A stretch of DNA of 64,000 bases from positions 4,798 to 68,797 of the forward strand of contig JAUWCU010000002.1 in NCBI GenBank assembly GCA_030609135.1. Reading direction: 5' to 3'. The translations under genes and the position numbers were made by a program. Below are positions 25,583-43,905 of this stretch, piece by piece; within the stretch, counting starts at the first letter, position 1, and the number at the start of each line of letters is the position of its first letter. The notes under the pieces were generated by a model. That model saw nothing but the letters and a program-made list of their open reading frames with translations. It searched no databases and was not told the DNA's origin. Source of the DNA: Candidatus Stahliibacteriota bacterium. GTDB lineage: Bacteria; Hydrothermota; Tepidihabitantia; SM23-42.

Positions 25583-25840
25583 TTATTTCTTGCAGCGTGT
25601 GTCGATCTTGTTCTGCAACTCTTCGATTTGACTATTGAGGTTAGCAATCTCGCTTTCGAGCGCCATTTTCATCGAGGTCAGTTCATCGAATTCAGCTTCA
25701 AGCTCAGCTATTTTTGATTGTGCGGCTTCCAGGGCGGCTCTAGTTTCCGCAAGTGCATCTAAAGTCTCCTGATTTGCCATTTTTGGACCACAACCAATAA
25801 CGACAATAGTGAGGAGAAGAACCGCAAGTATTTTTTTCAT
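25583..25840 (-). CDS. Small coiled-coil lipoprotein
   Basis: Signal peptide with lipobox VVIGC and a heptad-rich coiled coil; strong Shine-Dalgarno GGAGGTGG. Confidence 0.6.
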   Translation of the reverse strand: MKKILAVLLLTIVVIGCGPKMANQETLDALAETRAALEAAQSKIAELEAEFDELTSMKMALESEIANLNSQIEELQNKIDTRCKK

Positions 25841-26054
25841 AATGCCACCTCCTTATGGGCTTATTTATACTAAATCATATTCATAATTCCTCAAATGTCA
25901 ATAGGGAAATAGAAAGAAGCACGAAATGCAAATCTTCAAAACCACTACCACCTCCATAAAATACCATAATTGTGTGACTTTCAGAAAATGAGCGTTTGTT
26001 GTTTCAATATTTGAATTTTGAAATTGTTTCGAATTTAGGGCTTAGGTTTTAGAT

Positions 26055-26099
26055 ATTGTCAAGAGGTTCTCTTGACAATCTGTTGAATCTGACTATTAT
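26055..26099 (+). promoter_or_regulatory. ispD promoter (TTGACA 26072-26077, TATTAT 26094-26099; ATG 5 nt downstream) with a perfect 11-bp inverted repeat over the -35
   Basis: ATTGTCAAGAGgttCTCTTGACAATctgttgaatctgacTATTATttccaATG. Confidence 0.5.
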
Positions 26100-26104
26100 T
26101 TCCA

Positions 26105-26767
26105 ATGCGTAATTACGCTATTGTCGTAGCTGCTGGAAAGGGTAAGAGATTCGGGACTGCTAAGCAATTCCACCTGATCTACGGTATCCCGATGTTTATC
26201 TACAGCGTCCAGTCTTTTCATCAAAATAGACATATCCACACCATAATTCTTGTTGTACCAAAGCGGAAAATAGAAACTACCACGCAGCTCATTAAAAGAT
26301 TCAAACTGGAAAAGGTCAAGAAAATAGTCGCTGGAGGGAAGCGCCGTCAAGATTCAGTATTAAAAGGCTTGAACCAACTGAAGCGACAATCAGGTATTGT
26401 ACTAATCCATGACGGTGTCCGACCCCTGGTTGCTCAATCCTTGATAGATAAGGGTATAAAACTATGCAAAAGGCACAAGGCTGTTATTTTCGGTACGGCG
26501 ATTGGCGATACTGTAAAAGAAGCCGCAAACCGCCGCGTTGTGCGTACCGTACCGCGGCGCAACCTCTTCCTCGTTCAGACCCCTCAGTTCTTTGATATAA
26601 AACTCCTAAAAAAAGCCTTCCGTCAGACTATAAAATTTGATGAGTACACGGATGAGGCAGCAATACTTGAGGCACAAAGCATCCCCGTACATATCTTCCA
26701 AGGTCAACGCGACAATATCAAAGTAACGAGAAAAGAAGATCTCAGATTAATCGAAAAGCTATTGTGA
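26105..26767 (+). CDS. ispD: 2-C-methyl-D-erythritol 4-phosphate cytidylyltransferase
   Basis: AIVVAAGKGKRFG nucleotide-binding motif and IspD-family length. Confidence 0.85.
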   Translation: MRNYAIVVAAGKGKRFGTAKQFHLIYGIPMFIYSVQSFHQNRHIHTIILVVPKRKIETTTQLIKRFKLEKVKKIVAGGKRRQDSVLKGLNQLKRQSGIVLIHDGVRPLVAQSLIDKGIKLCKRHKAVIFGTAIGDTVKEAANRRVVRTVPRRNLFLVQTPQFFDIKLLKKAFRQTIKFDEYTDEAAILEAQSIPVHIFQGQRDNIKVTRKEDLRLIEKLL

Positions 26768-27891
26768 AAAAGGTCATCCTGCTTGGCTCAACTGGTTCCA
26801 TAGGACGTAACGCAATAAAAGTTATTAAAGACCTTCATGATTTCAAAATCGTCGGGTTAGCCGCCTACACTAATTATCAAATGCTTTCTGAACAAGCCAA
26901 GTATATAAAACCGCGTAGTGTTACCTTGGTTGATAAGAAACACTATGCAGTACTCAAGGGTGAAATAAGTAGAGCCAAGGTTTTCTGCGGTGAATCTGGT
27001 ATCACCGAGATGATCGATGCTACACAGGCAGATATTTTGATTGCCGCGTTTGCCAGCGCAGTCGGCATCCTCGGTATAAAAAGGGCAATCGAGAAACGTC
27101 TGCGTCTCTGTCTTGCGACCAAAGAAATACTGGTTAGTTTCGGCGATGTCATCATGCATGAAGTTCACCGGCATAACATAGATCTCATACCTATTGACAG
27201 CGAACATTCGGCAATATATCAATGCCTTGAAGGTAGAAATAGTGATGAAGTCAAGGCAATAATATTAACTGCCTCAGGTGGACCATTCCTTAAAAAATCG
27301 ATGAAGAATGTAACAAAAGCTGACGTGCTGAATCATCCAGTTTGGAAAATGGGTGCTAAAATTACCGTAGATTCAGCAACGATGATGAACAAAGGGCTTG
27401 AAGTTATTGAAGCACACCATCTTTTCAATATACCAGCTGAGCGCATCAAGGTTGTGATACACCCTGAAGCAATATGTCACTCGCTCGTGCAGTTTATCGA
27501 TGGCACAATGCTCGCTCAAATGTCCACACCAGATATGCAATTACCTATCCAACATTCACTCACATATCCTAAGCGTCGTCCATCAATGGTGCAACACTTG
27601 GATATAAGCCAGGTGAAACATTTGAGGTTTATGCCTCCTAACCATAGGAAATTTCCATGTCTTACATTTGCCTATGATGCTCTTATCACAGGTAAAAGCA
27701 TGCCTGCCGTGCTCAACGCCGCAAATGAAGAAACAGTCAAGTTATTTCTCGAAGATAAGATTGAATTTCACCAAATTCCGCGTATAATTAAGAAAGTCAT
27801 GAGTGAACATAAACCCCAAAAGGGTTCTATTGAAAACTACATAGAACAGGCATCATGGGCTAAGCAAACAGTTAGGAGGATAACTTGTTAG
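26764..27891 (+). CDS. dxr: 1-deoxy-D-xylulose 5-phosphate reductoisomerase
   Basis: N-terminal NADPH motif LGSTGSIGRNA, Dxr core (DSEHSAI, NKGLEVIEAH); overlaps the ispD stop. Confidence 0.9.
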   Translation: MKKVILLGSTGSIGRNAIKVIKDLHDFKIVGLAAYTNYQMLSEQAKYIKPRSVTLVDKKHYAVLKGEISRAKVFCGESGITEMIDATQADILIAAFASAVGILGIKRAIEKRLRLCLATKEILVSFGDVIMHEVHRHNIDLIPIDSEHSAIYQCLEGRNSDEVKAIILTASGGPFLKKSMKNVTKADVLNHPVWKMGAKITVDSATMMNKGLEVIEAHHLFNIPAERIKVVIHPEAICHSLVQFIDGTMLAQMSTPDMQLPIQHSLTYPKRRPSMVQHLDISQVKHLRFMPPNHRKFPCLTFAYDALITGKSMPAVLNAANEETVKLFLEDKIEFHQIPRIIKKVMSEHKPQKGSIENYIEQASWAKQTVRRITC

Positions 27892-29246
27892 AACTAGCAA
27901 CTTCAGGCTTTTGGTCTCCAATAGCTGATTTCGTAATATATCTAATATTACCATTTATGCTGCTGCTTGCCTTTTGTATAACAATTCATGAGTTTGGCCA
28001 TTTTTTGTTTGCCAAAATATTTGGCATACCGGTGGAGAAATTCTCAATAGGCTATGGTCCACCTCTTATAAGAGTGAAGATCGGTGAGACTGATTTTCGA
28101 ATTGCTTATTTCCCGTTGGGTGGTTACATAAAGATGGCTGGCGAAGATGAAGGTAAAATTCTAAAACATGAGAATGAACCGTTGCCAGAGCCCAAAACCA
28201 AACTACCTCGAGAAGAAAAGGCTGGTTTCTATGATGCGCCCATATATAAACGTATTATCGTGGTGTCAGCCGGACCAATGTTCAACATAATATCCGCAAT
28301 TATTGTCATGGCATTCACCTTTAGCATACTAGGCATTGCGGTTGATTATTCAACAACGATAGAAGTTGAGGAAAACGGCTATGCTGCACAGGTGGGATTT
28401 ATGAGCGGTGACTCAGTTATATCGGCAAATGACATACCAATTAATAACTGGGACGAATTCATTGAAATCTTGGCAAAAAACATCGATGGTGAAATCATAG
28501 TTAGCATAATAAGAGATGGCGAGGAAATTACACGTGCACTGAGAGTTGTCCCTGACTCGCTCGGTTTTACGAATTTCGTTGAACCACGCGCAGGTGCTGT
28601 AAAAAAAGGTGGTCCCGCTCACAAGGCAGGTATAACAGCAGGTGATAGGATACTGACAATAGATGGGTGCGATGTGCAGTCATGGACCGAGATGGTTAAT
28701 ATTGTAAGAAATTCTAAAAAGCCAGAGCTTCTATTTGAATGGGAACATAATGGTGAAACTAAAACTGCGTACATCGCGCCAGAGTCGGACTATGATTTTC
28801 TGTTAAATGATACGATTCGGAAAGTTGATATTCTTAAACCTCATAGACGTCAGTTCATTTCGATCCTTAGAGCACTAAGACTTTCATTTACTCGTACTCA
28901 TAACTTGATTGTGCTCACGTTGGATATGTTATATCAAATGATTACAGGTAAAATATCAAGAAAGGCACTCGGCGGTCCGATTGCGATTGCGAAATTAAGC
29001 AGGGAATCTGCTAAGTGGGGATTTGAGTTCCTGCTCGGTCTTCTGGCAGTTATTTCCGTAAATCTTGGGATTGTAAACCTCTTTCCTATCCCAGCACTTG
29101 ATGGTGGTCACATTCTTATCGGTACAATAGAAGCGGTAAGACGTAAGCGCTTCAGCAAAAAAACAATACTTATTATGCAACAGATTGGCTATGCGTTCAT
29201 TCTCCTCCTCATTTTGTTCGTTACATTCAACGATATCACGAGATGA
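27885..29246 (+). CDS. rseP: RIP metalloprotease RseP (M50 zinc protease with PDZ domain)
   Basis: HEFGHFLFAK HExxH in TM1, an internal PDZ domain, and a C-terminal LDGGH motif. Confidence 0.85.
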   Translation: MLELATSGFWSPIADFVIYLILPFMLLLAFCITIHEFGHFLFAKIFGIPVEKFSIGYGPPLIRVKIGETDFRIAYFPLGGYIKMAGEDEGKILKHENEPLPEPKTKLPREEKAGFYDAPIYKRIIVVSAGPMFNIISAIIVMAFTFSILGIAVDYSTTIEVEENGYAAQVGFMSGDSVISANDIPINNWDEFIEILAKNIDGEIIVSIIRDGEEITRALRVVPDSLGFTNFVEPRAGAVKKGGPAHKAGITAGDRILTIDGCDVQSWTEMVNIVRNSKKPELLFEWEHNGETKTAYIAPESDYDFLLNDTIRKVDILKPHRRQFISILRALRLSFTRTHNLIVLTLDMLYQMITGKISRKALGGPIAIAKLSRESAKWGFEFLLGLLAVISVNLGIVNLFPIPALDGGHILIGTIEAVRRKRFSKKTILIMQQIGYAFILLLILFVTFNDITR

Positions 29247-29351
29247 TTGACATCATCTCAGAATTTAGACAGATTATTGCGGATTCAAACGGATATTGTC
29301 ATCTGTATACATCTGCTGTAATCCGTCTGAATCAAATAGTTCTTTAGAACT

Positions 29352-30656
29352 ATGAGAATTTTATTCTACAACCCGGCAACAACCCAGAAAAGATATGAGT
29401 CCTACGAGGCAATAAAGGGAAGCGCCTTTTTCCGCAGACCCAATTATGACGCAATGCGTCTTTCTTTCCTATCAAAAACACATGACTTCAGATATTATGA
29501 TGAACGTATTGAAAAAAAGCCCGAGTTCACACCCGATCTGGTCGTTGTCAACGTACCTCTTAACCTTTCGCGCTACGTTTCATCGACAATAAGAAAAAAC
29601 TGGCCGCGGGATACCAAGGTGATCTCATATGGATTCTTCCCAACGCTCTTTCCTGAACGCAACAAGAAATTCGCCGATAGTACAATAATCGGTGACGTAG
29701 CTAATATCTGGAAAAGAATTCTTGCACACGCAGAAAGCGGCAAGCTTTTAAAAGCCTACAACTCAAATCGGAAAGACCAGTTCAGCATTGACCGCACAAT
29801 TGAAATTAAGTATGGCTTAACCCCGGCGCTGTCACAACTGAAAACATCCTTTGGCTGCACGTGTCTCAAACGCAACAAGGATTTCTGCTATGAGAACATC
29901 ATGTACAAAAGACTGGTCCAGTGGGATCTCGACGAGGCAATCCATGCAGTCGCGCATATAAAGCGGAAAATTGTTTTCTTGCGTGATGATGACTTCTTCC
30001 ATGATATTGACTATGCAATTAACTTTCTAGAAAAGTGCTGGCGCTTCAAGAAAATGTGGATATGTCAAAGTACAGGACGATTGTTCGAGCACCCTAAATT
30101 GTTCCCTGTACTACGCGACAATGGCGTCCGCATCATACACCTAAAAGAAGACTGGTTAGGCAATGACCTGGTGTACAAAATTGATGACCCGGATTTCCTT
30201 AAGGATAAGAAGCGTCAAATCGAACTACTCCATAGTAACAGAATAGCATGTGGTCTTTTGTTGAGACTTGGTTTTGAAGGTGAAGATTTTACTTTCTATC
30301 GAAAATTGCTGAAGCTTCTTCTGAATGTTAAAGTCGATATGGTCAAGGTTACTGTTCAGACACCAATGCCGAATACTGAGACCTTTCGCCGATATCAAAA
30401 GGATGGTTTCATCGCACAAGATCTGACCCTCTACGATCAATGGATGCCGGTCGTTCAAATCCCGGGCATGAGCCCACAAGCCCTTTATTCATGGATGGAG
30501 TGGTTGCGTGATAGGTTCTATTCCTGGGATTCTATTCTCTACAGAAACATCTCGGTTTCACCAAGACTCGGTCTTTACAATACTATGCTGTTCAACCTTT
30601 TACCTAATCTTTCATATCGTAACAATTTCCTTGAGAAAGTGGGCTATCCGCCCTAA
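29352..30656 (+). CDS. B12-binding-domain/radical-SAM-like protein with a non-canonical cysteine motif
   Basis: The N-terminal Rossmann-like region (RILFYNP...) resembles the cobalamin-binding domain of class B radical SAM enzymes; TIM-barrel-like core and DUF4070-like C-terminus. In place of CxxxCxxC the sequence is GCTCLKRNKDFC (CxC-x8-C). Confidence 0.55.
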   Translation: MRILFYNPATTQKRYESYEAIKGSAFFRRPNYDAMRLSFLSKTHDFRYYDERIEKKPEFTPDLVVVNVPLNLSRYVSSTIRKNWPRDTKVISYGFFPTLFPERNKKFADSTIIGDVANIWKRILAHAESGKLLKAYNSNRKDQFSIDRTIEIKYGLTPALSQLKTSFGCTCLKRNKDFCYENIMYKRLVQWDLDEAIHAVAHIKRKIVFLRDDDFFHDIDYAINFLEKCWRFKKMWICQSTGRLFEHPKLFPVLRDNGVRIIHLKEDWLGNDLVYKIDDPDFLKDKKRQIELLHSNRIACGLLLRLGFEGEDFTFYRKLLKLLLNVKVDMVKVTVQTPMPNTETFRRYQKDGFIAQDLTLYDQWMPVVQIPGMSPQALYSWMEWLRDRFYSWDSILYRNISVSPRLGLYNTMLFNLLPNLSYRNNFLEKVGYPP

Positions 30657-31540
30657 TTACCGAGTATTTTTAACCGCGCTTCAGTTCTAACCAAATAATT
30701 TTTTGCACCTTCGTGAGTGGGTTGATACTTGAGGACAGTTTTGAGTAGAGATAAGGCGCCGTTGTAATCTTCGTCAAGAAATTTACTGACCGCGGTGCTA
30801 TACATCCTCTCTATCTCTTCAGCAGAAATCTTCGCAGTTTTGCTTTTTTGTTTACTTACGTCTTTCTTTTTTTGAAATAACCGTGAATCGGCTTCTTCCA
30901 TTTGTGCAAGTGCTGTCTCGTTGAGCGAATCGATAGCAACCACTTTGTTATAGTAATAATAGGCATCGGCAAGTTTGCCAGAATCTTCGAGCGCGCGGGC
31001 GTAGTCAAGTAGACTACCTATGCAGACTATCTTTTTCGCCTCGTATAGTTCATTAATACTGTCCCTGGTGGCAACAGGATAATCATATTTTTCAAGCGCG
31101 GCAATATATCGCTCGGCTAATGTGATTTCACCATTCTCAATGGCATTGTGAAATGCTTCCAGATAGATATTTAGAGAATCGGTTTGTTTTTCCAAGGCAA
31201 GGCGATCAAAAGTCTTTACCATGTCAAAAACAAATCGTTTACCTTCAGTACTTATTGCTATGGATTTTTTTAACATCTCGTAGTCTTCGGCTTCAAGAAT
31301 AAAAGCGTACGTATCTGGCTTAAGTGCAACGCAAAAACTGCTTCGTGTCGTCTTGAAAGACTGACCGAGTTCTTCAACCGTCACCTTGACTAATGGTATG
31401 GAATCATGAGTAAGCGAATCACGAATCACTGCAGAAACATTGATTGTTTCCGCCTGGAGAAATGCACTACTATATAGATCGCCGTTATTGAAAGATACAA
31501 TCAGTTGTGCGATCATAGCTAAAATTATCGATCTTAACAC
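30653..31540 (-). CDS. Secreted hypothetical protein with a TPR-like helical region
   Basis: 295 aa with an N-terminal signal/TM segment and an alpha-helical repeat C-terminus. Confidence 0.5.
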   Translation of the reverse strand: MLRSIILAMIAQLIVSFNNGDLYSSAFLQAETINVSAVIRDSLTHDSIPLVKVTVEELGQSFKTTRSSFCVALKPDTYAFILEAEDYEMLKKSIAISTEGKRFVFDMVKTFDRLALEKQTDSLNIYLEAFHNAIENGEITLAERYIAALEKYDYPVATRDSINELYEAKKIVCIGSLLDYARALEDSGKLADAYYYYNKVVAIDSLNETALAQMEEADSRLFQKKKDVSKQKSKTAKISAEEIERMYSTAVSKFLDEDYNGALSLLKTVLKYQPTHEGAKNYLVRTEARLKILGN

Positions 31541-31592
31541 TCACACCCCCTTCTACGATATTATAGTAAATAATAGTAAAAAATCAATAGAC

Positions 31593-32276
31593 CTATGCCA
31601 TGCCAAGATACTTGTGGACCTGAGGTATTATCCTCACATCATTTAGCCGCTCAAGTGCAGTTTTCTGAATATCGAGGATATTTGGTATAACACATTCAAA
31701 GACCGGCTGAATAATGAGTGGTATGTTCTTATCTACACCGACGATGATTTCACACACTTTGTCCAATTCCTGAGGCAATAGATTTTCATTAATCACCATC
31801 TTCACGAACACGTTTTTACAGGCGGCTATCTTAAGACATTTCTTATGTTCATTCCAGAGTTTGGGACGTCCAGTTGCCGTGGGGATCTTGAAATCCAGTG
31901 ATACCGTATTCATGTACTTAATGAGCTTCTTGAGTTTATCAGGCAAAGCACCGTTGGTGTCGAGGTAGATATCCTTTTTCATCTGACGAATACTCCTGCA
32001 CAACTCACCAAGAAAATCCATTTGCAGCAAAGGTTCACCACCAGTAATCGCGATTTCATCAGCATCCAGTTTATCAAGGAGGAAATCTACTTCAACCGGG
32101 TTAGGCGATAGTTCTCCAGCATAGACAAAAGGACCTTCCGTTTTTTGAGTGTTTGGTGTATCGCAATAATTGCAGGAAAGGTTGCATCCTAAAAATCTTA
32201 TAAAGGTCTGTCGCTTCCCCACCTTAATGCCTTCACCCTGGATAGATGTAAATATTTCTCTAATATAACCCTTCAT
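31593..32276 (-). CDS. queE: 7-carboxy-7-deazaguanine synthase
   Basis: MKGYIREIFTSIQGEG...GCNLSCNYCDTP is the QueE N-terminus with its CxxxCxxC cluster motif. Start set at the ATG at 32276; the 28-codon upstream extension in the ORF track runs through the repeat array. Confidence 0.8.
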   Translation of the reverse strand: MKGYIREIFTSIQGEGIKVGKRQTFIRFLGCNLSCNYCDTPNTQKTEGPFVYAGELSPNPVEVDFLLDKLDADEIAITGGEPLLQMDFLGELCRSIRQMKKDIYLDTNGALPDKLKKLIKYMNTVSLDFKIPTATGRPKLWNEHKKCLKIAACKNVFVKMVINENLLPQELDKVCEIIVGVDKNIPLIIQPVFECVIPNILDIQKTALERLNDVRIIPQVHKYLGMA

Positions 32277-32282
32277 GCAGAA

Positions 32283-32476
32283 AAACGCAGCATCATCCCT
32301 TTGGGATTCGCAGTACCACCCCGACAAAGTCGAGGTTTGCAGTATCGCCCCGCCATGCAAGAATGGCGGAACTTGCAGTATCGCCTTCGGCTCGCAATGT
32401 AAAATAAAAGAAAGCGTTTTCTGCGAACGTAGTGATCCTGCGAACGTGGTGATCCTGCGAGCGTAGCGATCCTACG
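32283..32476. repeat. Palindromic repeat array (inverted copy of the 8186-8375 family) including 17-nt tandem repeats
   Basis: gcagtatcgccccgccatgcaagaatggcggaacttgcagtatcgcc is the reverse complement of the GATACTGCAAGTTCCGCCAT...unit. The 17-mer TGCGAACGTRGTGATCC is repeated about 3.3 times at 32422-32476; the array sits between the queE ATG and the upstream gene stop. Confidence 0.55.
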
Positions 32477-32481
32477 TTTAA

Positions 32482-33039
32482 TTATTCCACCCATTTCACT
32501 TTACAACGCGCCTTATCAATGTTTGCGTACTCTTCTTTGTATTTAGTCATGACTTGTTCGGCAAACCTATGCGGATCAATATCAAAGTCTTTCAAACCCC
32601 TTGTCTTCACCGGCGTATTATCGGACACAATATTAATGCCAAAGTGTATGAGTGAAGATAACGGTGTTACTGTTGCAATGGAAATCGACAGCTTGGCATC
32701 GCCATCATATAAATCACTACCTCGCCTTGTAATGTTAATGTCACGGCACATCTCATTCAAGACTTCGCCAATAATGGTGGTCAAGACAAGTTGCCTTAGT
32801 ACTGCTTTTTCAAGATCAGTATCATAGTGTTCTATAATGAAATGCAACATCGACGCAGAGTATATTTTTGCATCGGCTTTGACATCCTCAATATCAGCCA
32901 TCTGCTCAGTCGGAATATCGCACTTGCCACAAAAAGCAATGATTGAATCGCCAAGCATGTCAAATTCAGTAAATGCATAATTGCTGTGTAATTGTCCACC
33001 AGTATAGGCTATCTCTTGCTTAATATATTTCGTTTTCAT
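32482..33039 (-). CDS. Conserved hypothetical protein (possibly DUF366-like)
   Basis: 185 aa, no TM; weak recollection of DUF366-type proteins. Function unknown. Confidence 0.5.
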   Translation of the reverse strand: MKTKYIKQEIAYTGGQLHSNYAFTEFDMLGDSIIAFCGKCDIPTEQMADIEDVKADAKIYSASMLHFIIEHYDTDLEKAVLRQLVLTTIIGEVLNEMCRDINITRRGSDLYDGDAKLSISIATVTPLSSLIHFGINIVSDNTPVKTRGLKDFDIDPHRFAEQVMTKYKEEYANIDKARCKVKWVE

Positions 33040-33985: not shown

Positions 33986-34492
33986 CTAATTACCTAAGAT
34001 ACCGAGTTTCTTCTTCAAATATGGTATCAAACCATTGTTCGTAACTATCTTTAAAATAAAATCCGGCAGTTTCTTTGCTTTAATGATTTCATTAGTGCGC
34101 ATGTTTTTAATTATACCGATTAGTAGATCAATTTCAATATCATCGTTGTGCTCAACCTGCTGCGTAATCCCCGGCGCGATAATCACTGGCAGACCCAAAT
34201 TGATTGCATTCCTGTAGAAAATCCGGGCAAAGGTTTCCGCAACAACCGCTCTGACACCAAAATACTTAAGGCAAGTGGCGGCTTGCTCACGGGATGAACC
34301 GCAGCCGAAGTTCTTGCCGCCGACTATGATATCACCGGGATTTGCATTTTTCAGGAATTCAGGATGGACCGCTTCAAAACAATGCTTTGCCATTTCCTCG
34401 CGATCTGCAGTAATAGATAGATACTTACCCGGATAGATCACGTCAGTATTTATATTGTTGCCGAATTTGTATACATGTCCCTTAATCAACAT
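33986..34492 (-). CDS. leuD: Aconitase-family small subunit (3-isopropylmalate dehydratase LeuD-type)
   Basis: NTDVIYPGKYL...GKNFGCGSSREQA signature of LeuD/HacB small subunits. Confidence 0.85.
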   Translation of the reverse strand: MLIKGHVYKFGNNINTDVIYPGKYLSITADREEMAKHCFEAVHPEFLKNANPGDIIVGGKNFGCGSSREQAATCLKYFGVRAVVAETFARIFYRNAINLGLPVIIAPGITQQVEHNDDIEIDLLIGIIKNMRTNEIIKAKKLPDFILKIVTNNGLIPYLKKKLGILGN

Positions 34493-35742
34493 GGTTCAGT
34501 TATCTCCCCTTTCAGCGCTGAAGCCGCCACGGTCCCCGGTGAAGCCAGATAAACAAAAGCTTCCGGACTGCCCATCCGCCCCTTAAAATTGCGATTTGTC
34601 GTTGCCAGACAAATTTCTTCAGGAGCAAGTAAACCCTGATGTGCACCGAGGCAAGGTCCGCAACCTGGATTCAATACAAGTCCACCGGCTCGGACAAAAA
34701 TCTCAATATAGCCTTTATGTAGAGCCTCAAGATAGACTCTGCGTGAAGCCGGGATCACTAATAACCGGGTGTCTGGATGTACTGTTTTACCCTCTAAAAT
34801 CTCGGCTGCGGCAGCCAAATCTTCTAATCTCCCATTAGTACACGACCCGATTAATGCCTGGTCAATCTTTAGGCCGGTTATTTCACTGACCGGTTTGACA
34901 TTGTCAACTGAATGTGGACAGGCAACTTGACTCGTTAAGCTACTGACATTGATATTCAATTCACCACTATATTCAACATCTTGATCAGGTAAGATAACCT
35001 GGAAATGTTTATCGGTCCTCTTTTTTAGATACGCTATGGTTTGTTCATCCGGGGGCACAAACGCGACTTTTGCCCCCATTTCCATAGGCAGATTGGAAAG
35101 AACCATACGTGATGCGATAGTCATATGAGATATTGTTTCACCATGGAATTCTACTGCCTGGTAATTGGCACCATCCGCACCCAATATCCCGATAATATGC
35201 AAGATAAGATCCTTTGCCGTTACACAAGGTTTGAATTTCCCATCCACATTAATCTTTATTGATTCCGGTACGCGCAACCATAGTTCTCCGGTTGCCCAAA
35301 CGCCAGCCATTTCCGTAGCCCCAATTCCGGTTGCAAAAGTGCCAAAAGCACCATGTGTAGTTGTATGAGAATCAGTGCCTACTAAGACCTCGCCAGGTAA
35401 ATCATGCCCCAATTCCGCTAAAACCTGGTGACAAATCCCTTGTCTCAAATCATAGAAGTACTTGATCTGCTGTTCTTTTGCAAATGTCCGTAAACGACGA
35501 TGAGTAGCTGCGGTCCTTTCACTATCTGCAGGTATACGGTGATCGAATAGTATGACAATTCTCTCCTTATCCCAAACTTTTTTAACACCGATTTCTTTAA
35601 ACGATCTTAACACAACATCGGCATTTTCATGGGACATAGCCACATCAACTCTTGCCATAACAATTTCGTTAGGCGATACTACTTTTTTACCTGACGCTCT
35701 GGCTAAGATTTTTTCAGCAATCGTTTTATTCATAGAAATCAT
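34486..35742 (-). CDS. leuC: Aconitase-family large subunit (3-isopropylmalate dehydratase LeuC-type, short archaeal-type form)
   Basis: Fe-S cluster ligands and motifs VGTDSHTTTHGA, GSCTNGRLEDL, NPGCGPCLG. Alternative start at Met4 (MNKTIAEKIL). Confidence 0.85.
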   Translation of the reverse strand: MISMNKTIAEKILARASGKKVVSPNEIVMARVDVAMSHENADVVLRSFKEIGVKKVWDKERIVILFDHRIPADSERTAATHRRLRTFAKEQQIKYFYDLRQGICHQVLAELGHDLPGEVLVGTDSHTTTHGAFGTFATGIGATEMAGVWATGELWLRVPESIKINVDGKFKPCVTAKDLILHIIGILGADGANYQAVEFHGETISHMTIASRMVLSNLPMEMGAKVAFVPPDEQTIAYLKKRTDKHFQVILPDQDVEYSGELNINVSSLTSQVACPHSVDNVKPVSEITGLKIDQALIGSCTNGRLEDLAAAAEILEGKTVHPDTRLLVIPASRRVYLEALHKGYIEIFVRAGGLVLNPGCGPCLGAHQGLLAPEEICLATTNRNFKGRMGSPEAFVYLASPGTVAASALKGEITEPC

Positions 35743-35832
35743 TGTAGTCGCTCAATTCATTGAGCAGCCTGATAAATCCCGCAATCCTGTTTGTAGAATT
35801 ATAATACGAAGCGGGATAAATCAGGCAACTAC
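35743..35832. mobile_element. MITE-like repeat, copy 5 (full length), immediately abutting the leuC start codon
   Basis: TGTAGTCGCTCAATTCATTGAGC ... GCCTGATAAATCCCGC...GCGGGATAAATCAGGCAACTAC. The left terminal inverted repeat begins 1 nt after the leuC ATG (35740-35742). Confidence 0.6.
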
Positions 35833-35865
35833 GTTTTTGAAAATCAGATTCATCAAAAGCGTTTA

Positions 35866-36063
35866 ATCCGTCCCTTCGGTGATCTGGTTCATTTAGGTAT
35901 TTAGGCATTTTGGATTTTAGGTATTTGCTTTTTCTCCGGTACACCGTTACTCCCTTACGCCGTTTCCCCCAGTCTCCTTGTCCCCTTATCTTCAAAGATC
36001 CCCTGATCTCCTGACCCCACGTGTCTCCATGTCTCCGTTTCTCCATTTCTCTGTTTCTCCGTT
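35866..36063. repeat. Mosaic repeat modules plus five tandem octamers (GTKTCTCC / reverse-complement GGAGAMAC) ending at the ccl stop codon
   Basis: 35876-35985 share about 100 nt with 55195-55300 (gatctggttcatttagg...acaccgt.actccc.tacgccgtttccccc.gtctcc). 36020-36059 = gtgtctcc atgtctcc gtttctcc atttctct gtttctcc. Confidence 0.5.
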
Positions 36064-36828
36064 TCATTTCGTAATGTCCCGCTCCCATGGTCCATCATAG
36101 GTAACTTCTTGTTCACACATACGACGCATAGGCTTCTGCGTCGTCATTTCCTCGTACACATGTGCGATAAGACCAGCACATCGACCAATTAAAAAGAAAG
36201 CTTTACCGAGTTTCCAATCAAACCCCATATCTGATATGATCGCAGCGATTGCTCCATCGACATTTATGGGTAATGCTTTGCCCTCAGCGAATTCTTCTTT
36301 CAGCGCAAGGCTCAGCTTTATATGCTCTTTAGTGATTTTTAAATCATCAGCCATTTCATAGAGCCGTTTGGTTCGGGGGTCGTTTTTATGGAGGCGATGA
36401 CCAAACCCGGGCATGCGTCTACCCTGCTTTTTAAGAGTCTTTAGTAGTGTCTGAGCAGTTCTTTCATAATCCCACTTTTCCTCTTGCCTTTTCTTTACCC
36501 AATTCTGTAAAATGCGTGCACCATCTTCAATTGCTCCACCGTGGACATCACCAACTGCCAAAATCCCTGCAGCAACTGCACTAGGCAAAGGTACACCAGC
36601 TGAGGCAACGATGCGCGCAGCGTGTGTTGAGGGTGGAGTAACACTGTGGTCAATTGAGGAAGTAATGATTGCATCGATCATTTTCGCTTCTTTTTTATCC
36701 GGCATTCTTCCTCTTATCAGAAGAAAAAATACTGAACTAAATGGTATATTACCGATAAGGTCTTCCTGACGATAGCCGCGTGTTACAATATTATCTGGTT
36801 CAACCTTTGAAATCTTTGTTTGCCACAT
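36064..36828 (-). CDS. Citrate-synthase-like short protein, candidate citryl-CoA lyase (Ccl-like; equivalent to the AclA C-terminal domain)
   Basis: 254 aa containing the citrate synthase signature GFGHRLHKNDPR and catalytic His/Asp region but lacking the N-terminal half of a true citrate synthase. Lies directly downstream of SucC/SucD-like genes. Confidence 0.6.
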   Translation of the reverse strand: MWQTKISKVEPDNIVTRGYRQEDLIGNIPFSSVFFLLIRGRMPDKKEAKMIDAIITSSIDHSVTPPSTHAARIVASAGVPLPSAVAAGILAVGDVHGGAIEDGARILQNWVKKRQEEKWDYERTAQTLLKTLKKQGRRMPGFGHRLHKNDPRTKRLYEMADDLKITKEHIKLSLALKEEFAEGKALPINVDGAIAAIISDMGFDWKLGKAFFLIGRCAGLIAHVYEEMTTQKPMRRMCEQEVTYDGPWERDITK

Positions 36829-36944
36829 AATTGTTCCTCCAAATACCTAAAGTTGTGGGAGAGCCTTTCCAGGCTCGATTTTCGCGGGCAGCCCGCCCCC
36901 AAATATTTTTCCATAGCTTCTTGCCATTAATCGCCTTCTTTGCC

Positions 36945-37841
36945 TTATCCTGGCTTCTCCTGCCTTTTTCTGTCTTCTAAAGCCCTTTTCACAAGTATCG
37001 GTATCTCGCTCAGTGTTTGCGCAAGTATTGCGCCGTGCTTTTGTAAAGCTTCAATTTTGCCATGAGCAGTACCCATATTACCCTCAATGATCGCACCAGC
37101 ATGACCGAGCCGCTTACCTTGAGGTGCTGCTTTACCTGTTATATAAGCAATAACTGGTTTTAACATATGTTCAATAAAAGGAGCTGCTAATTCTTCATAA
37201 ACCCCACCGATTTCACCGGCCATCACAACCGCATCGGTCTCAGGGTCATTTTCAAACAATCGTAATATGTCCTCGTAGTTTGCTCCCAGGATTGGATCCC
37301 CACCCAGACCAACTGAAGTCGATTCACCAAAGCCAGCAAGGTTTAGAGAATTTGCCAAATAATATGTCACGGCGCCGCTGCGTGCAATCGTACCTATGCG
37401 TCCGGGTTTAAAGGTAATTTTTGGGAGCATACCAACGAGTGCCTTACCTGGTGAAATTACACCTGGCGTATTGCCTCCTATAACGACGACACCCTTTTCT
37501 TTGGCTTTCTGGCGTGCGTATAGCATATCGTGAATTGGGATGCATTCAGTTATTACAATGACCGTTTTAATACCGGCATCAATTGCCTCAAGTATTGCAT
37601 CCTTTGCAAAACGTGGCGGTACCCAAATGCTTGACACAGCAGCATCCGGATGTTTTTCCAAACACTGGTGTACAGTATCATACACTCTTACACCTTCAAC
37701 TTCCTGACCACCTTTGCCCGGCGTCACACCACCAGCGATCTTTGTCCCGTATTCGAGCATGAACTTTGTATGGAGTGATGCATTTTTTCCAGTAATCCCC
37801 TGGACTATCGTTTTCGTTTCATTATCAATAACAATACTCAT
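36945..37841 (-). CDS. Succinyl-CoA synthetase alpha-subunit-like protein (candidate citryl-CoA synthetase small subunit / split AclA N-domain)
   Basis: CoA-binding Rossmann N-domain and the phosphohistidine loop GHAGAII. Confidence 0.7.
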   Translation of the reverse strand: MSIVIDNETKTIVQGITGKNASLHTKFMLEYGTKIAGGVTPGKGGQEVEGVRVYDTVHQCLEKHPDAAVSSIWVPPRFAKDAILEAIDAGIKTVIVITECIPIHDMLYARQKAKEKGVVVIGGNTPGVISPGKALVGMLPKITFKPGRIGTIARSGAVTYYLANSLNLAGFGESTSVGLGGDPILGANYEDILRLFENDPETDAVVMAGEIGGVYEELAAPFIEHMLKPVIAYITGKAAPQGKRLGHAGAIIEGNMGTAHGKIEALQKHGAILAQTLSEIPILVKRALEDRKRQEKPG

Positions 37842-37846
37842 TGTTA

Positions 37847-39079
37847 TTATTCCTTATCTGCGCAATCTGTGTCCGCCTCTGGCGGATTTTCTGTGTCAAT
37901 CTGTGTCTTGGCCACCCGGATCGTTTCCTTAATCACTTGCTCAATAGGTGTATCAACCGCATATATCTTGATTTTTTTGAATAGCTCTGGAAAATTTCTT
38001 TTTGCTTGTTCCAGTATTTTTCTGCCCTGCTCTTCCATATTACCGGCCATCCTCATGATCATCGGTTTTTCAGGTTTGTTTTCCTTTACATATTGCACTA
38101 TTGCCCTTGCCCAATCATCACACCGAGAAATGCCTCCAAAACGGGCACCGAATATAGCTTTCACTTTAGGGTTATCAACAAGCAATCCAAGCATAGCCCG
38201 GAGCTTTTCTTGAGTCGGAGCACCACCTGAATCCATAAAGTTAGCCGGTTTTCCTTGATAAAGTGTTATCAAATCTATCGCCGCAATGCCAAAACCAGCA
38301 CCTCCGGGGAATACACCGATATCACCATCAAGATCCACATAAGGGATACCTTTCGCCTTAGCTATTTGTTCGCGTTGGGTCAACTCCCCGAGCTCGTGCC
38401 TTGCCACAATACCCATTTCTTTGAGTTCTCGGTGCTTAAACATAGCATCTTCGTCAAGGTCAATTTTGGCATCGAGCGCATAAATGTTTCCGTCTTTTGA
38501 TAAAACCAGCGGGTTAATTTCAACTAACTTACAATCAAAGCCTAAGAAAAGTTTGTACACCTTCAAGATAATACCCGCAACTATCCCTAACCCATCACTC
38601 GAGAATCCCAAATCACCTGATATAGTTCTTGCCTTAAAACCATGCATTATTTCACCTGGATTAAAGTAATACTTTAATAATGCACCAGGATCGTCTTTAG
38701 TAATTGCTTCTATGTCCACGCCGCCTTTTTTGCTCGCCATAAATAAGAGCTTATGCTCGAGCCGATCGATCAATGCAGCAATATATACTTCTCTTTCAAT
38801 ATTTATTTTCTTCTCCAGGAGAACTTTCTCAATGACAAATGGACCATGCTTCTTACCTAAAATTGAGCATATCATGGCCTCAGCCTCTTCTCTACACTCG
38901 GCAAATTGAACAAGCCCAGCTTTGCCCCGGCCGCCTAAAAACGCCTGTCCTTTAATAACCACCGGATAGACGACCTTATCCAGCTCATTGAAGCTATCCC
39001 TACTGATGACAACTGACTCGGGTACTGGTATCATGTACTTTCTGAATAGTTTTTTTGCTTCGAATTCGTATAATCTCAT
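37847..39079 (-). CDS. Succinyl-CoA synthetase beta-subunit-like ATP-grasp protein (candidate citryl-CoA synthetase large subunit / AclB-like)
   Basis: The ATP-grasp N-terminus MRLYEFEAKKLF..GGRGKAG parallels SucC; the C-terminal CoA-ligase domain differs from the canonical SucC glycine-rich loop. Confidence 0.7.
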   Translation of the reverse strand: MRLYEFEAKKLFRKYMIPVPESVVISRDSFNELDKVVYPVVIKGQAFLGGRGKAGLVQFAECREEAEAMICSILGKKHGPFVIEKVLLEKKINIEREVYIAALIDRLEHKLLFMASKKGGVDIEAITKDDPGALLKYYFNPGEIMHGFKARTISGDLGFSSDGLGIVAGIILKVYKLFLGFDCKLVEINPLVLSKDGNIYALDAKIDLDEDAMFKHRELKEMGIVARHELGELTQREQIAKAKGIPYVDLDGDIGVFPGGAGFGIAAIDLITLYQGKPANFMDSGGAPTQEKLRAMLGLLVDNPKVKAIFGARFGGISRCDDWARAIVQYVKENKPEKPMIMRMAGNMEEQGRKILEQAKRNFPELFKKIKIYAVDTPIEQVIKETIRVAKTQIDTENPPEADTDCADKE

Positions 39080-39798: not shown

Positions 39799-42700
39799 CT
39801 ACTGCCCGGACAGAGGCTGTACCAAAACGTCGTCGTAATCAGTCACCATACCCTCTTGTTCCAAGACCCCAATACCAATACCTCCATTGATAAATGGATT
39901 ATCATTGTCCGTATAGCTAATTCGAAGGCTGTCATTCAAGTAGCCTTTAATCTGATGAGGTTGGGATTGAATTTCAACCTTGAGGTTGTACCAGACATTT
40001 TGCTCGGGCTTGAAAGGATAGCTTGCGAGGAATATCCAAATTCCGTTGACTCGTTTGTAAAGGTCAATGCAACCTGCATCACCATGAATGCCGAAGCGGT
40101 AGTAATTCAAATCATCCTGTACCCGGAAAAAGACGTATGATTTCAACCAAGACACACTAGCACTACCTATTATTCTGGTCCTAACCTGATATTGGTAATT
40201 CGTCCAGTCGCAAGCCTCAGCCACGGTGGCAAAATGCGTGCTGCCGCTACCCCGGGCAAAACTAGGTTCTTCGGGCGGAACGAACCATGTTCCTTGGCGT
40301 TTGTTCCATAGGGTATCCATCACACCACTATCAAAGTTGTCAGCGAACAATGTATCTGGTGGTTCGAGCGGACGCACGACAATGTCATCGTAATAGTTGG
40401 TCATATTGCCTTCAGTAATACCGATGCCGATACCACCATACTGATATTTTGTGTCATTGGCAGTAATTACTTGCTTACCATTGAAGAAACAACGAATCCA
40501 ATTGCCCTGAACCTTAACCGCAAGATTGTACCAGCTGTCCTTCTGGGGTTGAAAATCATAAGTACCAAGCCTTGTCCATCCATGTAAGCTATCGCGTCGA
40601 TAGAGCACGAGCCTTGGTTCATCTCCCTTTATTCCGTATCTGTAGTACTGAGTGTCATTTTGGACACGGAAGAAAACATAAGATTTGAGATACGGTATAT
40701 CCGGATGAGTACTTCCCGCCATTTTAGTATTGACCTGAAAACGGTAATTGGTCCATCCTTCATCACCCGCACCGACTGTGGCAAGGTAAGAAGAATAATT
40801 CCCACTGCCTTTTGCACTGCTGTCCTCAACCGACCACGCATTTGGATCATCCCATTTATACCATTGACTACTCATTGAACCAGAATTAAAATCGTCATAG
40901 AAAATATCTCCGGGTAATGGTCTCATTGCCCGGTTAACCTGCTCTGTAATACTACCAACCGTATCACTGTTACTAATAGCGGTTATGTAGAGGGTACCGA
41001 CAGTATCTTTTAATTCTAAAAATACTTCAACTTCTTTGGTTCCATGTCCGGGGAGTGTAACCGGATTGTTCCCAATGAATGCTATCTCTCCATGTCCTTG
41101 TGTAAATGCTCCAGTCAAGGTAACAGACATCGTATCAGTTGTGTTGTTTATCAAAGTCAATGGAAAGCTATCACCAGTCGGAAACTTTATGAATAAATCT
41201 TCGGGTAGCTCAAGGCTCACCGGGTCATAAACCCATACTGTAAACAATGTTGAATCATCTGGCGTCGGGCTAGTATTAATCACCCAGAAAGTATCTTCAC
41301 CAAGGGGATGGGTATCTGGGATTGTAAAATCATATTGAATCTCCCGAACTTCACACTGACGCAGCCAAAAAGTACGAAAAGAGCAATTCCCAAATGGTGT
41401 GGTGATTAGCAACGCGTATTGTTTAGAGCCGAACTCAAGATTCTGAACCCGGAGTTTGAATTTTCCAGCCTTACCTTGGCAGAGCACTGGTGAAGACATC
41501 GATGAATATTCGTACCTCGGTTCCTGACTGAGCCGAACAAGTGCGGAAACCATGTGTTCGGGCACATTAAGCATATCCATGGCAGTAGGATCGTAATAGA
41601 CCCATCTTGGTCCAAAATAATCTCCTGACAAAACATAACAATGATCATACGTGCCTAATCCGGGGAACATTATTTTAACACCCAGATTGTATCTAAATGG
41701 ATCCATGCTGACTTGTGACCTATCCATGTTCACCATTGGAATAAGCAAGTCATTATCTGGGATTTTAAAAATATTGCCTTTAATATCTGCAGGCAGTCGT
41801 AGAGCATGGGCATTAAGTACCCATGTCTTACCCTTATACAAATTAAAAAGAGGTTGATACTTAAGGTCTATTAAGCGACTTAAGGGTTCATCTACATTAG
41901 CCTCAAGGCTTGGATAAAGTCCACCATACAAAGCAGTCTTGTCCTTGGTTTCGGTCTCACTAGCTAATGTGTCAATGACAAAAAGTATTAAAGGGCGGGA
42001 TAGACCAAGATACTGCAGACAACTTACTACTTCAGGATGTCTTTCAACCATGATTCCATCGATGTTTTTACATACCTCCACGCTTGTGGGCCCATTGGCT
42101 AAAATGCCTTTGTTACGATTATGCACCTCTCTACAGATTTTTTCATTTATTTCTTCCAGCGCAAATCCAAGCATATAGACAGGAGTAGTATTAATCATGG
42201 TCACGCTATCGTTGTGAGCGTAATCATAATAGTGGTAATCATCCCGGTCATAGAAGATACCTGCCGCTGGAAAACTATCTAAAACAGCCGTTATCTGAGT
42301 GTCGATGTATGCCGCCCAGGAACGTTCACCCGGGGGATAAAAGGACAAAAGATTCGTGTCCGGATTCATAAGTCGGCATGCTTGAAAAGCTTTAAGGGGA
42401 TTTCCATCCTGATCTTTCGCAAGAGATGAATCAAAAGGAAAAGGTATTGTGTCATTATATACCCAACTTTTCCATGCCTCCATAGACTGAGTATATGGAT
42501 ATGAACCAATCTGATGATCATTAAATAAATTCATAATGTACGTAATGGTATCGTAGGTATAATAATCATTGCCGGCGTGTCGAAGCCAATATTTATAAGT
42601 CGTAGTGCTATCTCCATCTCTTATGCCCAGCCATTTGAAACGGTCCTGGGGTACATAGAGGCCAAAAAATGCCTTGTTGTGATAGTATTCTTCCCATTTT

Positions 42701-43905
42701 ACTCCGAATATTTGACAGGTATCTATTTTTTCCAGCTCACCAAATGTCCAGGAACCTGCTATGAAGAATCGTCCTTCATAGTCTTGTATTTGGGAACTGT
42801 CATGAGGTGTAAAATATTCTGGATACCGTGTTTGCATATAGGCAAGCCCTGGTCGCCAGTCGCCTTCATGAGGGACAAGATACAATGAAGTCTGGGCAGC
42901 CTGGCTCTGCGGTACGTACATTTGCATATAATTGTATGAGACCCTAAAAGTATCGGAAGCAGGGGTTTTTCTTAATTTAAATTGCAGTCGCGGTTTTTTC
43001 ACTTCAAATGGGCAGATAAAAGATACACCATAATCCAAAGTGGTATCATATAGAGTTACAGACGGCAAAATGCAGAAATTCTCACGATAGATGATTGTTT
43101 TATTGAAGTAGTCTTCGATGAAATACGGTGCATTGGCATCAGCCCAGAACGCATATTGCATTGTATCAAGAAGCGGTAAAGAAAAATCCAGACGCAATGA
43201 GCGTCTTGTCGGATTCTCAATATTGAGCCAGACATGATTATCCCAACGTAATCCGAGTGTATCCATTGTATAACTAACCAGTGCCTGATGATTCGGAAAA
43301 TTAATTTGAAAGCTGATCATCCCCTGTGTGGGAGTATTAACCGTGTCAATATAAACTAAGGAATCAACATCCTCATCTTGCAGATATTCCTGACTTATCA
43401 GCGTGTCCCGGAATACTATTTGTCCTGGCTCATTAGCTGAGAGCAACCCACTATGACCTTTTACTGTCAGACCGCGTATCACGCCTGTTTGCCTCCAGAA
43501 TATCACCTCCATGTGGATGTTGCGTAATATGATTAAGGTATCATTACTCTCGAATTCCACTTTCACCAGCTCAACTTCACCCATATTCACCGGTCCGATT
43601 TCAGGGTCATAAGTAATAACCTTGTTTCTAAAATATGAACCATATTCAAAATGAACATCATACTTACCTGCAGGAAGTGCACCGAACCGAGAAGCATGAA
43701 AATAACCATCTCCATACATCGGATGATGATAACTTACTGTATCAAGCACAATGCTCGTGTCGTTTTGATACACCGCCTTGATGTGGACTCCATTGGTTCT
43801 TACACCCTCTACCTTGGTAAAACCGTAGCAAAGTGTTTCTGCATAAGCAGTTTGCACAGCGCCCAGGCAAAACAATGCTACTATGAGTGACAAAATGTTC
43901 TTCAC
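39799..43905 (-). CDS. Large secreted protein (1368 aa) with two tandem C-terminal DUF1080/LamG-like jelly-roll domains
   Basis: Signal peptide MKNILSLIVALFCLGAVQTAYA. The last ~340 aa are two ~170-aa repeats (...W.NY.....K.YVFFRVQ.D..YYR.GI.GD...L.R...G.W..L..Y.F.P...WYNL.V..Q.....Y...D..........GGIGIG...). No recognisable catalytic motif in the N-terminal 1000 aa. Confidence 0.7.
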   Translation of the reverse strand: MKNILSLIVALFCLGAVQTAYAETLCYGFTKVEGVRTNGVHIKAVYQNDTSIVLDTVSYHHPMYGDGYFHASRFGALPAGKYDVHFEYGSYFRNKVITYDPEIGPVNMGEVELVKVEFESNDTLIILRNIHMEVIFWRQTGVIRGLTVKGHSGLLSANEPGQIVFRDTLISQEYLQDEDVDSLVYIDTVNTPTQGMISFQINFPNHQALVSYTMDTLGLRWDNHVWLNIENPTRRSLRLDFSLPLLDTMQYAFWADANAPYFIEDYFNKTIIYRENFCILPSVTLYDTTLDYGVSFICPFEVKKPRLQFKLRKTPASDTFRVSYNYMQMYVPQSQAAQTSLYLVPHEGDWRPGLAYMQTRYPEYFTPHDSSQIQDYEGRFFIAGSWTFGELEKIDTCQIFGVKWEEYYHNKAFFGLYVPQDRFKWLGIRDGDSTTTYKYWLRHAGNDYYTYDTITYIMNLFNDHQIGSYPYTQSMEAWKSWVYNDTIPFPFDSSLAKDQDGNPLKAFQACRLMNPDTNLLSFYPPGERSWAAYIDTQITAVLDSFPAAGIFYDRDDYHYYDYAHNDSVTMINTTPVYMLGFALEEINEKICREVHNRNKGILANGPTSVEVCKNIDGIMVERHPEVVSCLQYLGLSRPLILFVIDTLASETETKDKTALYGGLYPSLEANVDEPLSRLIDLKYQPLFNLYKGKTWVLNAHALRLPADIKGNIFKIPDNDLLIPMVNMDRSQVSMDPFRYNLGVKIMFPGLGTYDHCYVLSGDYFGPRWVYYDPTAMDMLNVPEHMVSALVRLSQEPRYEYSSMSSPVLCQGKAGKFKLRVQNLEFGSKQYALLITTPFGNCSFRTFWLRQCEVREIQYDFTIPDTHPLGEDTFWVINTSPTPDDSTLFTVWVYDPVSLELPEDLFIKFPTGDSFPLTLINNTTDTMSVTLTGAFTQGHGEIAFIGNNPVTLPGHGTKEVEVFLELKDTVGTLYITAISNSDTVGSITEQVNRAMRPLPGDIFYDDFNSGSMSSQWYKWDDPNAWSVEDSSAKGSGNYSSYLATVGAGDEGWTNYRFQVNTKMAGSTHPDIPYLKSYVFFRVQNDTQYYRYGIKGDEPRLVLYRRDSLHGWTRLGTYDFQPQKDSWYNLAVKVQGNWIRCFFNGKQVITANDTKYQYGGIGIGITEGNMTNYYDDIVVRPLEPPDTLFADNFDSGVMDTLWNKRQGTWFVPPEEPSFARGSGSTHFATVAEACDWTNYQYQVRTRIIGSASVSWLKSYVFFRVQDDLNYYRFGIHGDAGCIDLYKRVNGIWIFLASYPFKPEQNVWYNLKVEIQSQPHQIKGYLNDSLRISYTDNDNPFINGGIGIGVLEQEGMVTDYDDVLVQPLSGQ

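Follow-up and report, generated by a model that had tools for sequence, protein, structure and literature searches.

A gene of the 64,000-nucleotide stretch analysed here (the window, i.e., the whole of this DNA, from contig JAUWCU010000002.1 of a Candidatus Stahliibacteriota bacterium) encodes a protein with the fold of class B-like radical S-adenosylmethionine (SAM) enzymes, in which the cysteine loop departs from the defining CX3CX2C pattern. Radical SAM enzymes are recognized by this CX3CX2C signature, the CX2C part of which positions the SAM-binding iron. The gene, termed X in the following, is located at 29352..30656 on the forward strand, as are the features of X and of its operon given below; it starts with ATG and codes for 434 amino acids. 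On balance, its product is interpreted as a diverged radical SAM enzyme of the B12-domain type (class B-like), specific to candidate division WOR-3, which cleaves SAM by means of a remodelled [4Fe-4S] loop and serves an envelope- or isoprenoid-linked function. Most likely, X represents a working iron-sulfur enzyme, probably a SAM-dependent one.

The loop comprises residues 168 to 179 of X (G-C-T-C-L-K-R-N-K-D-F-C; 29853..29888) and was delimited by alignment, comparison of homologues and the AlphaFold model. Translation and alignment with canonical proteins bear out the original prediction of an open reading frame with a loop other than CxxxCxxC, a displaced middle cysteine and a lengthening by 3 residues, the distance from first to last cysteine being 11 residues compared to 8. 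The proposed spacing of C-x-C-x8-C has to be corrected to C169-x-C171-x7-C179. In the alignment, C169 corresponds to G-C1 and F178-C179 to Phi-C3 of CX3CXPhiC, which leaves the outer cysteines at their canonical places, and the middle cysteine is found at +4 in the canonical and at +2 in the variant group. A kinship to CDGSH/mitoNEET proteins, which feature the pattern C-x-C-x8-C-x3-H, was considered and dropped, as X has no conserved histidine and a different fold.

A search of 5.8 billion proteins revealed 111 homologues of X, all with E<1e-98, 46–97% identical and nearly all 432–436 amino acids long. Among the 108 of them that were aligned, C169, C171 and C179 are the sole invariant cysteines, and the last one is always directly preceded by an aromatic residue (Y/F178); such a pattern by far exceeds what chance would produce. 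The motif GCxC-x7-C occurs in 110 of the 111, the exception (P0107) being a fragment truncated at its N-terminus. Beyond these homologues, the cysteine trio persists, as C-x-C-x(4-7)-C, in 14 additional genomes and 19 distantly related cluster representatives, and it is invariant down to 22–32% identity to X where this was measured. Two positions past the last cysteine, the clade features a polar residue (E181 in X; E, Q or N in general), canonical relatives having V, I or T. Every homologue with a source name identifying an organism belongs to WOR-3, and the same holds for all named genomes with any member of the variant clade. Since 110 full-length homologues share the motif and stem from many independent samples and sources, it cannot be an artefact of sequencing or assembly; the alignment test suggested with the original prediction finds the odd spacing conserved in a whole clade and distant relatives with CxxxCxxC at the same place.

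Moreover, X is under strong purifying selection. The ratio of nonsynonymous to synonymous substitution rates (dN/dS) amounts to 0.083 in comparison with an 88%-identical orthologue (L027), and in the more distant locus L028 X is 79% identical, compared to 76% for Dxr, 67% for IspD and 57% for RseP of the same operon. The positions that never vary are concentrated where the barrel strands end C-terminally, i.e., at the active-site location of radical SAM enzymes. This distribution together with the low dN/dS renders a decaying or purely structural protein unlikely. The inactive pseudo-enzyme which the original prediction had offered as an option is disfavoured by the same ratio and by the fact that X is more conserved than Dxr in close relatives.

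The origin of the variant loop can be traced by means of the family profile, for which HMMER was used to search 1.84 billion cluster representatives; at E<=1e-3, it matched 6930 proteins, of which 146 reached E<=1e-30. Among the best 150 of the 6930 matches, 19 distant representatives feature C-x-C-x7-C at the same position (one with x6, one with x4). The rest of these 150 carry CxxxCx(F/Y)C at the same alignment position, save two short N-terminal fragments, and past ~1e-40 all of them are canonical CxxxCxxC proteins. When 24 variant and 20 canonical proteins were placed in a neighbour-joining tree, the variant group was monophyletic in 100 of 100 bootstraps, with a long stem and the canonical protein P0116 as its sister. 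As the variants thus form one clade with a canonical sister, the rearrangement goes back to a single origin in a canonical lineage. Judged from alignment and tree, the clade of X descends from CX3CX2C proteins, one event having shifted the middle cysteine (+4 to +2) and added three residues to the loop. Searches of the PDB with the single sequence of X and with the family profile yielded nothing relevant, the only matches of the profile being chance ones to PTPN23 (E 0.28); a profile of mixed variant and canonical sequences matched MgmA (1e-20), AprD4 (3e-18) and also CysS and TsrM.

The nearest relatives outside the clade are P0116, P0125, P0130 and P0135, which align end to end with the family profile at E-values of 1e-64 to 1e-41. 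They resemble X in length, in an N-terminal KGxxxFRxP loop, in LKKxW, in the helix FYS..SI and in a G-Y-P-P tail. In contrast to X, they have CxxxCxFC, GGxHxT, DDN, GxES and TPxPGT and are matched by Pfam B12-binding, Radical_SAM and DUF4070. P0116 further differs from X in its location among radical SAM and methyltransferase genes, away from rseP. On metagenome contigs of the Joint Genome Institute (JGI; L011, 1613-8048, and L012), it lies in a co-directional cluster that comprises a methyltransferase, a SPASM radical SAM protein, a run of three B12-binding radical SAM genes and a membrane methyltransferase resembling PEMT. This cluster represents an uncharacterised multi-radical-SAM pathway, with lipid modification as one possible role.

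The strongest signal of the genomic context, which was absent from the original prediction, is the invariant operon ispD-dxr-rseP-X. In the window, it consists of ispD (26105..26767; Pfam IspD, 2.7e-53, and synteny), dxr (26764..27891; assigned by synteny, with a 4-bp overlap with ispD), rseP (27885..29246), which encodes a site-2 metalloprotease with Peptidase_M50 and PDZ domains, and, after a spacer of 105 bp (29247..29351), X. Compared loci included close (L001, L002, L028), intermediate (L005, L006) and deep-branch ones (L007-L010, L013-L025). Wherever a locus extends far enough upstream, i.e., in the window and 23 others, the order with X in last position was found, and rseP is the immediate upstream neighbour of X in each of the loci examined. 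In 13 of 13 deep-branch genome loci covering the start of X, the start codon overlaps the stop codon of rseP as GTGA or ATGA; at this junction (~3989-4004 in L013-L025), X starts with GTG, and with ATG in L016 alone. The window subfamily has a spacer instead of the overlap (105 bp in the window, 20–107 bp in L001, L002 and L028), so that the operon junction must have been remodelled within the phylum. The statement that the gene stands alone therefore holds for the 105-bp gap after rseP and the convergent gene downstream, but not for X as the conserved fourth member of the operon.

No promoter-like or terminator-like site was found on the forward strand of the spacer, and an Rfam scan of 25600-31700 gave neither a SAM nor a cobalamin riboswitch and no match in the spacer. 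Among the promoter-like sites of the region, the best one, TTGACA-16-TATTAT (26072..26099), matches the consensus in 11 of 12 positions just upstream of ispD and, as a consensus match only, is a candidate for the operon promoter. In bacteria, rseP is often found beside dxr, uppS, cdsA and bamA (PMC6411480). Since rseP commonly neighbours dxr, the pair is ancestral and X the WOR-3-specific addition.

With regard to the fold, the AlphaFold model of X, built from 78 sequences, reached a predicted local distance difference test (pLDDT) of 87.6 and a predicted template modelling score of 0.87. It features a five-stranded Rossmann-like domain (residues 1-140; 29352..29771), a six-stranded core with the partial (beta/alpha)6 triosephosphate isomerase barrel of the radical SAM superfamily, and C-terminal helices (375-424). 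This corresponds to the class B layout of an N-terminal Rossmann-type domain, a radical SAM core and a helical C-terminal domain. Structural matches comprise AprD4 (the best), TsrM, MgmA, CysS, TokK, OxsB and isolated cobalamin-binding domains. The clade member P0124, 23% identical to X, was modelled with the same architecture (pLDDT 88.0) and the same top matches, and both models share a short helix between the second and the third cysteine (residues 173-178 of X). The product is predicted to be soluble without transmembrane segments and has an isoelectric point of 9.4, which would be compatible with an anionic ligand and does not identify it; the GC content of the gene is typical of the window.

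The Rossmann-like domain was delimited by AlphaFold secondary structure and alignment and has no PF02310 match. Where canonical proteins read GGxH(P/A)T, GE(A)E and IS..T, X has Y-G-F-F-P-T, G-D-V and VPLNL, respectively; at the level of the clade, GGxHxT has become (Y/F)GxYPT and GE(A)E has become GD(I/V). Its beta1-alpha1 loop contains a conserved insert (residues 19-35; 29406..29456; EAIKGSAFFRRPNYDAM, KGSxFFRRPNYDAMRL) with invariant G23 and F27. G23 is invariant over the whole clade, and the KGxxxFRxP loop of the nearest canonical relatives is the counterpart of this insert. Residues 19-27 show a pLDDT below 50, and both models, X and P0124, are of low confidence there; the insert could represent a mobile lid or a partner-binding element. 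The strongly conserved C-terminal tail (NLSYRNNFLEKVGYPP; 30606..30653) ends in the G-Y-P-P common to the nearest canonical relatives, and residues 426-434 were modelled as disordered. A role of this tail as a ligand of the RseP PDZ domains was rejected, because canonical relatives which are not located beside rseP have the tail too, so that it is not RseP-specific.

For the positions expected to contact SAM, the comparison drew on 40 canonical sequences, 26 close ones and 30 from the deep branch. Where barrel strand 2 ends (D212-D-D-F215; 29985..29996), the counterpart of the canonical DDN ("GGE-motif" position) is DDD in the subfamily of X and DDD or DED in the deep branch. The ribose motif G-Phi-E-S at the end of strand 4 is replaced by K-E-D-W (K265-E-D-W268; 30144..30155) and by N-E-(S/T)-F, respectively. 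In strand 5, the GxIxGxxE-type stretch, which reads FGFDxDD in canonical relatives, corresponds to LGFEGE in the subfamily of X (G301-LLLRL-G307-FEG-E311; 30252..30284) and is lost in the deep branch. After strand 6, the canonical LTPxPGT has become QTPxPxT (Q-T337-P338-M-P340-N-T342; 30357..30377) and is deleted in the deep branch. The subfamily of X appears to have a recognisable counterpart for every SAM-contacting position, including the aromatic residue before the third cysteine. Mainly because the clade as a whole does not keep these positions, SAM-radical chemistry is rated no higher than roughly even odds.

If X is a SAM-cleaving enzyme, C169, C171 and C179 would ligate a site-differentiated [4Fe-4S] cluster in its customary position on top of the barrel. 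By reasoning, the side chains i and i+2 of C-x-C would point to one face of an extended segment, spaced approximately as two cluster ligands, and the x7 insert, folded as a short helix, would bring C179 back to the cluster. The free iron would bind SAM, held by the aromatic residue before C179, by DDD (strand 2), KEDW (strand 4), GxxxxxGFEGE (strand 5) and TPxPxT (strand 6). Upon reduction, a 5'-deoxyadenosyl radical would be generated and the substrate modified. X would be co-transcribed with rseP and the first committed genes of the methylerythritol phosphate (MEP) pathway and translationally coupled in most relatives. Owing to this co-transcription with rseP, ispD and dxr, the substrate is most likely envelope- or isoprenoid-linked.

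Several observations weigh against a SAM-cleaving X. The CX2C element is broken in the clade, and we know of no radical SAM cluster with C-x-C. The motif variants compiled in RadicalSAM.org range from CX4- to CX11-CX2C, with a variable first gap and a terminal CX2C that is always kept (PMC9477430), in contrast to X, which keeps the outer two cysteines, moves the middle one and has lost CX2C. In addition, the ribose motif was rewritten to K-E-D-W and the deeper half of the clade is devoid of the motifs of strands 5 and 6; if one function is common to all members, canonical SAM binding may not be needed. The profile search proposed with the original prediction failed, as no Pfam family matched X even at E<=10, Radical_SAM, B12-binding and DUF4070 included; four distant clade members likewise had no Pfam match, and a precomputed PF04055 match exists for 3 of the 111 homologues only. 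The predicted class B fold order is thus supported by profile and structure searches (Rossmann domain, barrel and helical tail), but not by these three families. NCBIfam matches were weak, with 29.9, 25.2 and 16.0 bits for HpnJ, BchE and HpnR compared to cut-offs of 578, 481 and 650. Finally, the synteny is confined to one phylum and could in part reflect an inherited ancient dxr-rseP block instead of a functional link.

Accordingly, other explanations have to be weighed. Possible, if rather unlikely, is a protein which holds an iron-sulfur cluster via the three cysteines and makes no 5'-deoxyadenosyl radical. The cluster would then act as a substrate-binding or redox site of the IspG/IspH type for a phosphorylated MEP intermediate, or SAM would be re-oriented for the transfer of a 3-amino-3-carboxypropyl group as in Dph2/ArsL or for polar methyl transfer as in TsrM. 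This would agree with a clade in which CX2C, the ribose motif and, in the deeper half, the motifs of strands 5 and 6 were given up, with cysteines and operon place invariant. The clade-specific polar E/Q/N past the last cysteine and the invariant linkage to ispD-dxr point in the same direction, and TsrM, AprD4 and ArsL provide precedents of non-radical or non-cobalamin chemistry in this fold group (PMC12931638; PMC13331322). However, for each SAM-contacting position, the aromatic residue ahead of the last cysteine among them, the window subfamily seems to retain a recognisable counterpart, and X has no homology to IspG or IspH. That X acts directly in or on the MEP pathway without the standard SAM/5'-deoxyadenosyl route, e.g., with an MEP intermediate at the open iron or as a replacement or assistant of IspG/IspH in WOR-3, is regarded as decidedly improbable. 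In Thermotoga and clostridia, the slot after dxr-rseP is presumably occupied by ispG. A regular-expression scan of the window and 26 loci (306 kb) gave no IspG, IspH, IspE or IspF signature, which is uninformative on whole genomes.

An unlikely explanation is further that of a catalytically dead scaffold, in which the cysteines hold a structural metal (zinc or a non-reactive cluster) and X serves as a partner or regulator of RseP. In most lineages, the start of X overlaps the stop of rseP, which implies that the two proteins are synthesized in a coupled manner and in equimolar amounts; profile libraries do not recognize X as a radical SAM enzyme, and the PDZ domains of RseP could be matched with the invariant, apparently flexible C-terminal tail of X. 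Yet the location of the invariant residues at the C-terminal barrel-strand ends is not the pattern of a surface interface, and a dN/dS of 0.08 and a conservation higher than that of RseP disagree with it as well. A joint function with queE and the DUF366 gene in 7-deazaguanine (queuosine-type) metabolism seems very improbable. Both genes are located downstream of X on the opposite strand in the window, L001, L027 and L028, but transcription is convergent and other loci have GatD/MurT (L002 to L004), a thioredoxin-like gene (L005), EF-G (L006) or NifU/ThiI (L007, L009) in this place. As the downstream neighbours vary and upstream ispD-dxr-rseP alone is constant, the proximity of queE is incidental; its distance, originally given as about 1.6 kb, is 0.94 kb to the near end and 1.7 kb to the start codon, and the neighbourhood is not conserved. 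Practically no weight is left for an artefact or a decaying pseudogene of one genome. No supporting point was found, and the motif in 110 full-length homologues, 19 distant representatives and 14 further genomes, the constant length of 432–436 amino acids and the dN/dS of 0.08 all speak against it.

With the outer cysteines kept and the middle one displaced, this WOR-3-wide and strongly constrained clade is an exception to the defining motif of the superfamily. If SAM is still cleaved by X, the loop around the cluster is more tolerant than assumed, and censuses based on motifs overlook enzymes of this kind, Pfam being a case in point. Otherwise, X represents a new case in which the radical SAM barrel has been put to other iron-sulfur chemistry. 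In either case, X is an uncharacterised conserved gene in an envelope/isoprenoid locus of an uncultured phylum, and its invariant coupling to rseP and ispD-dxr offers a concrete place to seek the substrate. The resemblance to the superfamily is not new, since automated pipelines already name some homologues "radical SAM protein" or "YgiQ" and the name used by JGI is a generic one at the level of COGs; TIGR03904 (YgiQ / UPF0313) was not matched by X in the NCBIfam search. The clade-wide broken CX2C and the linkage to rseP appear to be undescribed. Literature searches for WOR-3 with radical SAM, for rseP with radical SAM and dxr, and for WOR-3 with MEP genes returned nothing on the family of X, and a full-text search for CXCX7C with radical SAM gave no radical SAM paper, just one unrelated mitoribosome paper.

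Further observations concern the surroundings of X in the window. Between X and queE, a 295-amino-acid gene with a hydrophobic N-terminus and a weak TPR_19 match lies on the reverse strand (30653-31540), convergent to X and overlapping its stop by 4 bp. It looks like a lineage-specific insertion, because it is absent from L001, L027 and L028, where queE directly follows X. In this WOR-3 lineage, the canonical queE (GCNLSCNYC, CX3CX2C) is always paired with the DUF366 gene (31593-33039, reverse strand; L001, 7322-8601; L028, 6851-8088), which hints at a role of DUF366 in 7-deazaguanine metabolism, and the pair is followed by a small tetratricopeptide repeat protein and then a TrkA gene. A second small Peptidase_M50 protein of 210 amino acids without PDZ domains is encoded on the forward strand at 5261-5893, between a gene of the poly-A-polymerase/CCA-adding type (4098-5261) and an AsmA/YhdP-like gene (5900-8176). 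On the reverse strand at 33986-39079, genes of the small and large aconitase subunits are followed, judged by synteny with L001 and L028, by a short citrate-synthase-like gene and by coenzyme A-ligase alpha/ATP-grasp beta genes; this arrangement is typical of ATP-citrate-lyase or citryl-coenzyme A-type (reverse tricarboxylic acid cycle) modules. Also on the reverse strand, a 1368-amino-acid protein (39799-43905) has a 3-keto-disaccharide-hydrolase domain near its C-terminus as its sole Pfam match, and a 371-amino-acid open reading frame (49278-50393) has no Pfam match.

Among known systems, the best structural match of X is AprD4, a radical SAM 1,2-diol dehydratase (PDB 6FD2). It is 14% identical to X, and its family model NF033070 (cut-off 500 bits) is absent among the NCBIfam matches of X at E<=10. 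According to the profile-PDB alignment, AprD4 carries its three cysteines at the motif position as GCPYPCRFYC, in contrast to C-x-C-x7-C in X, and it belongs to aminoglycoside biosynthesis and not to an ispD-dxr-rseP operon. AprD4 and ArsL feature the fold without bound cobalamin (PMC12931638), and the residue beneath the cobalt differs among OxsB, TsrM and TokK (PMC13331322), so that a sequence motif cannot decide on cobalamin binding. The cobalamin-binding N-domain of the original prediction is thus not inferable, as the best match, AprD4, has the domain and binds no cobalamin; we lean towards an N-domain of X that does not bind it. TsrM, MgmA, CysS, TokK and OxsB, all cobalamin-dependent (class B) enzymes with solved structures, are 11–14% identical to X and have the canonical cysteine motif, compared to the rearranged motif and the altered Rossmann motifs of X. 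Of the curated models, X touches only those of the lipid- and tetrapyrrole-modifying class B equivalogs HpnJ, HpnR and BchE, and since the scores are far under the cut-offs, this resemblance is generic to the superfamily and no membership. The cluster of ThiC is described as sitting elsewhere than in canonical enzymes (PMC4389238). Closest to X with respect to the loop itself are HmdB with CX5CX2C, QueE with CX14CX2C and ThiC with CX2CX4C, which likewise feature three cysteines at non-standard spacing, theirs being presumed or shown to hold a SAM-binding [4Fe-4S] cluster.

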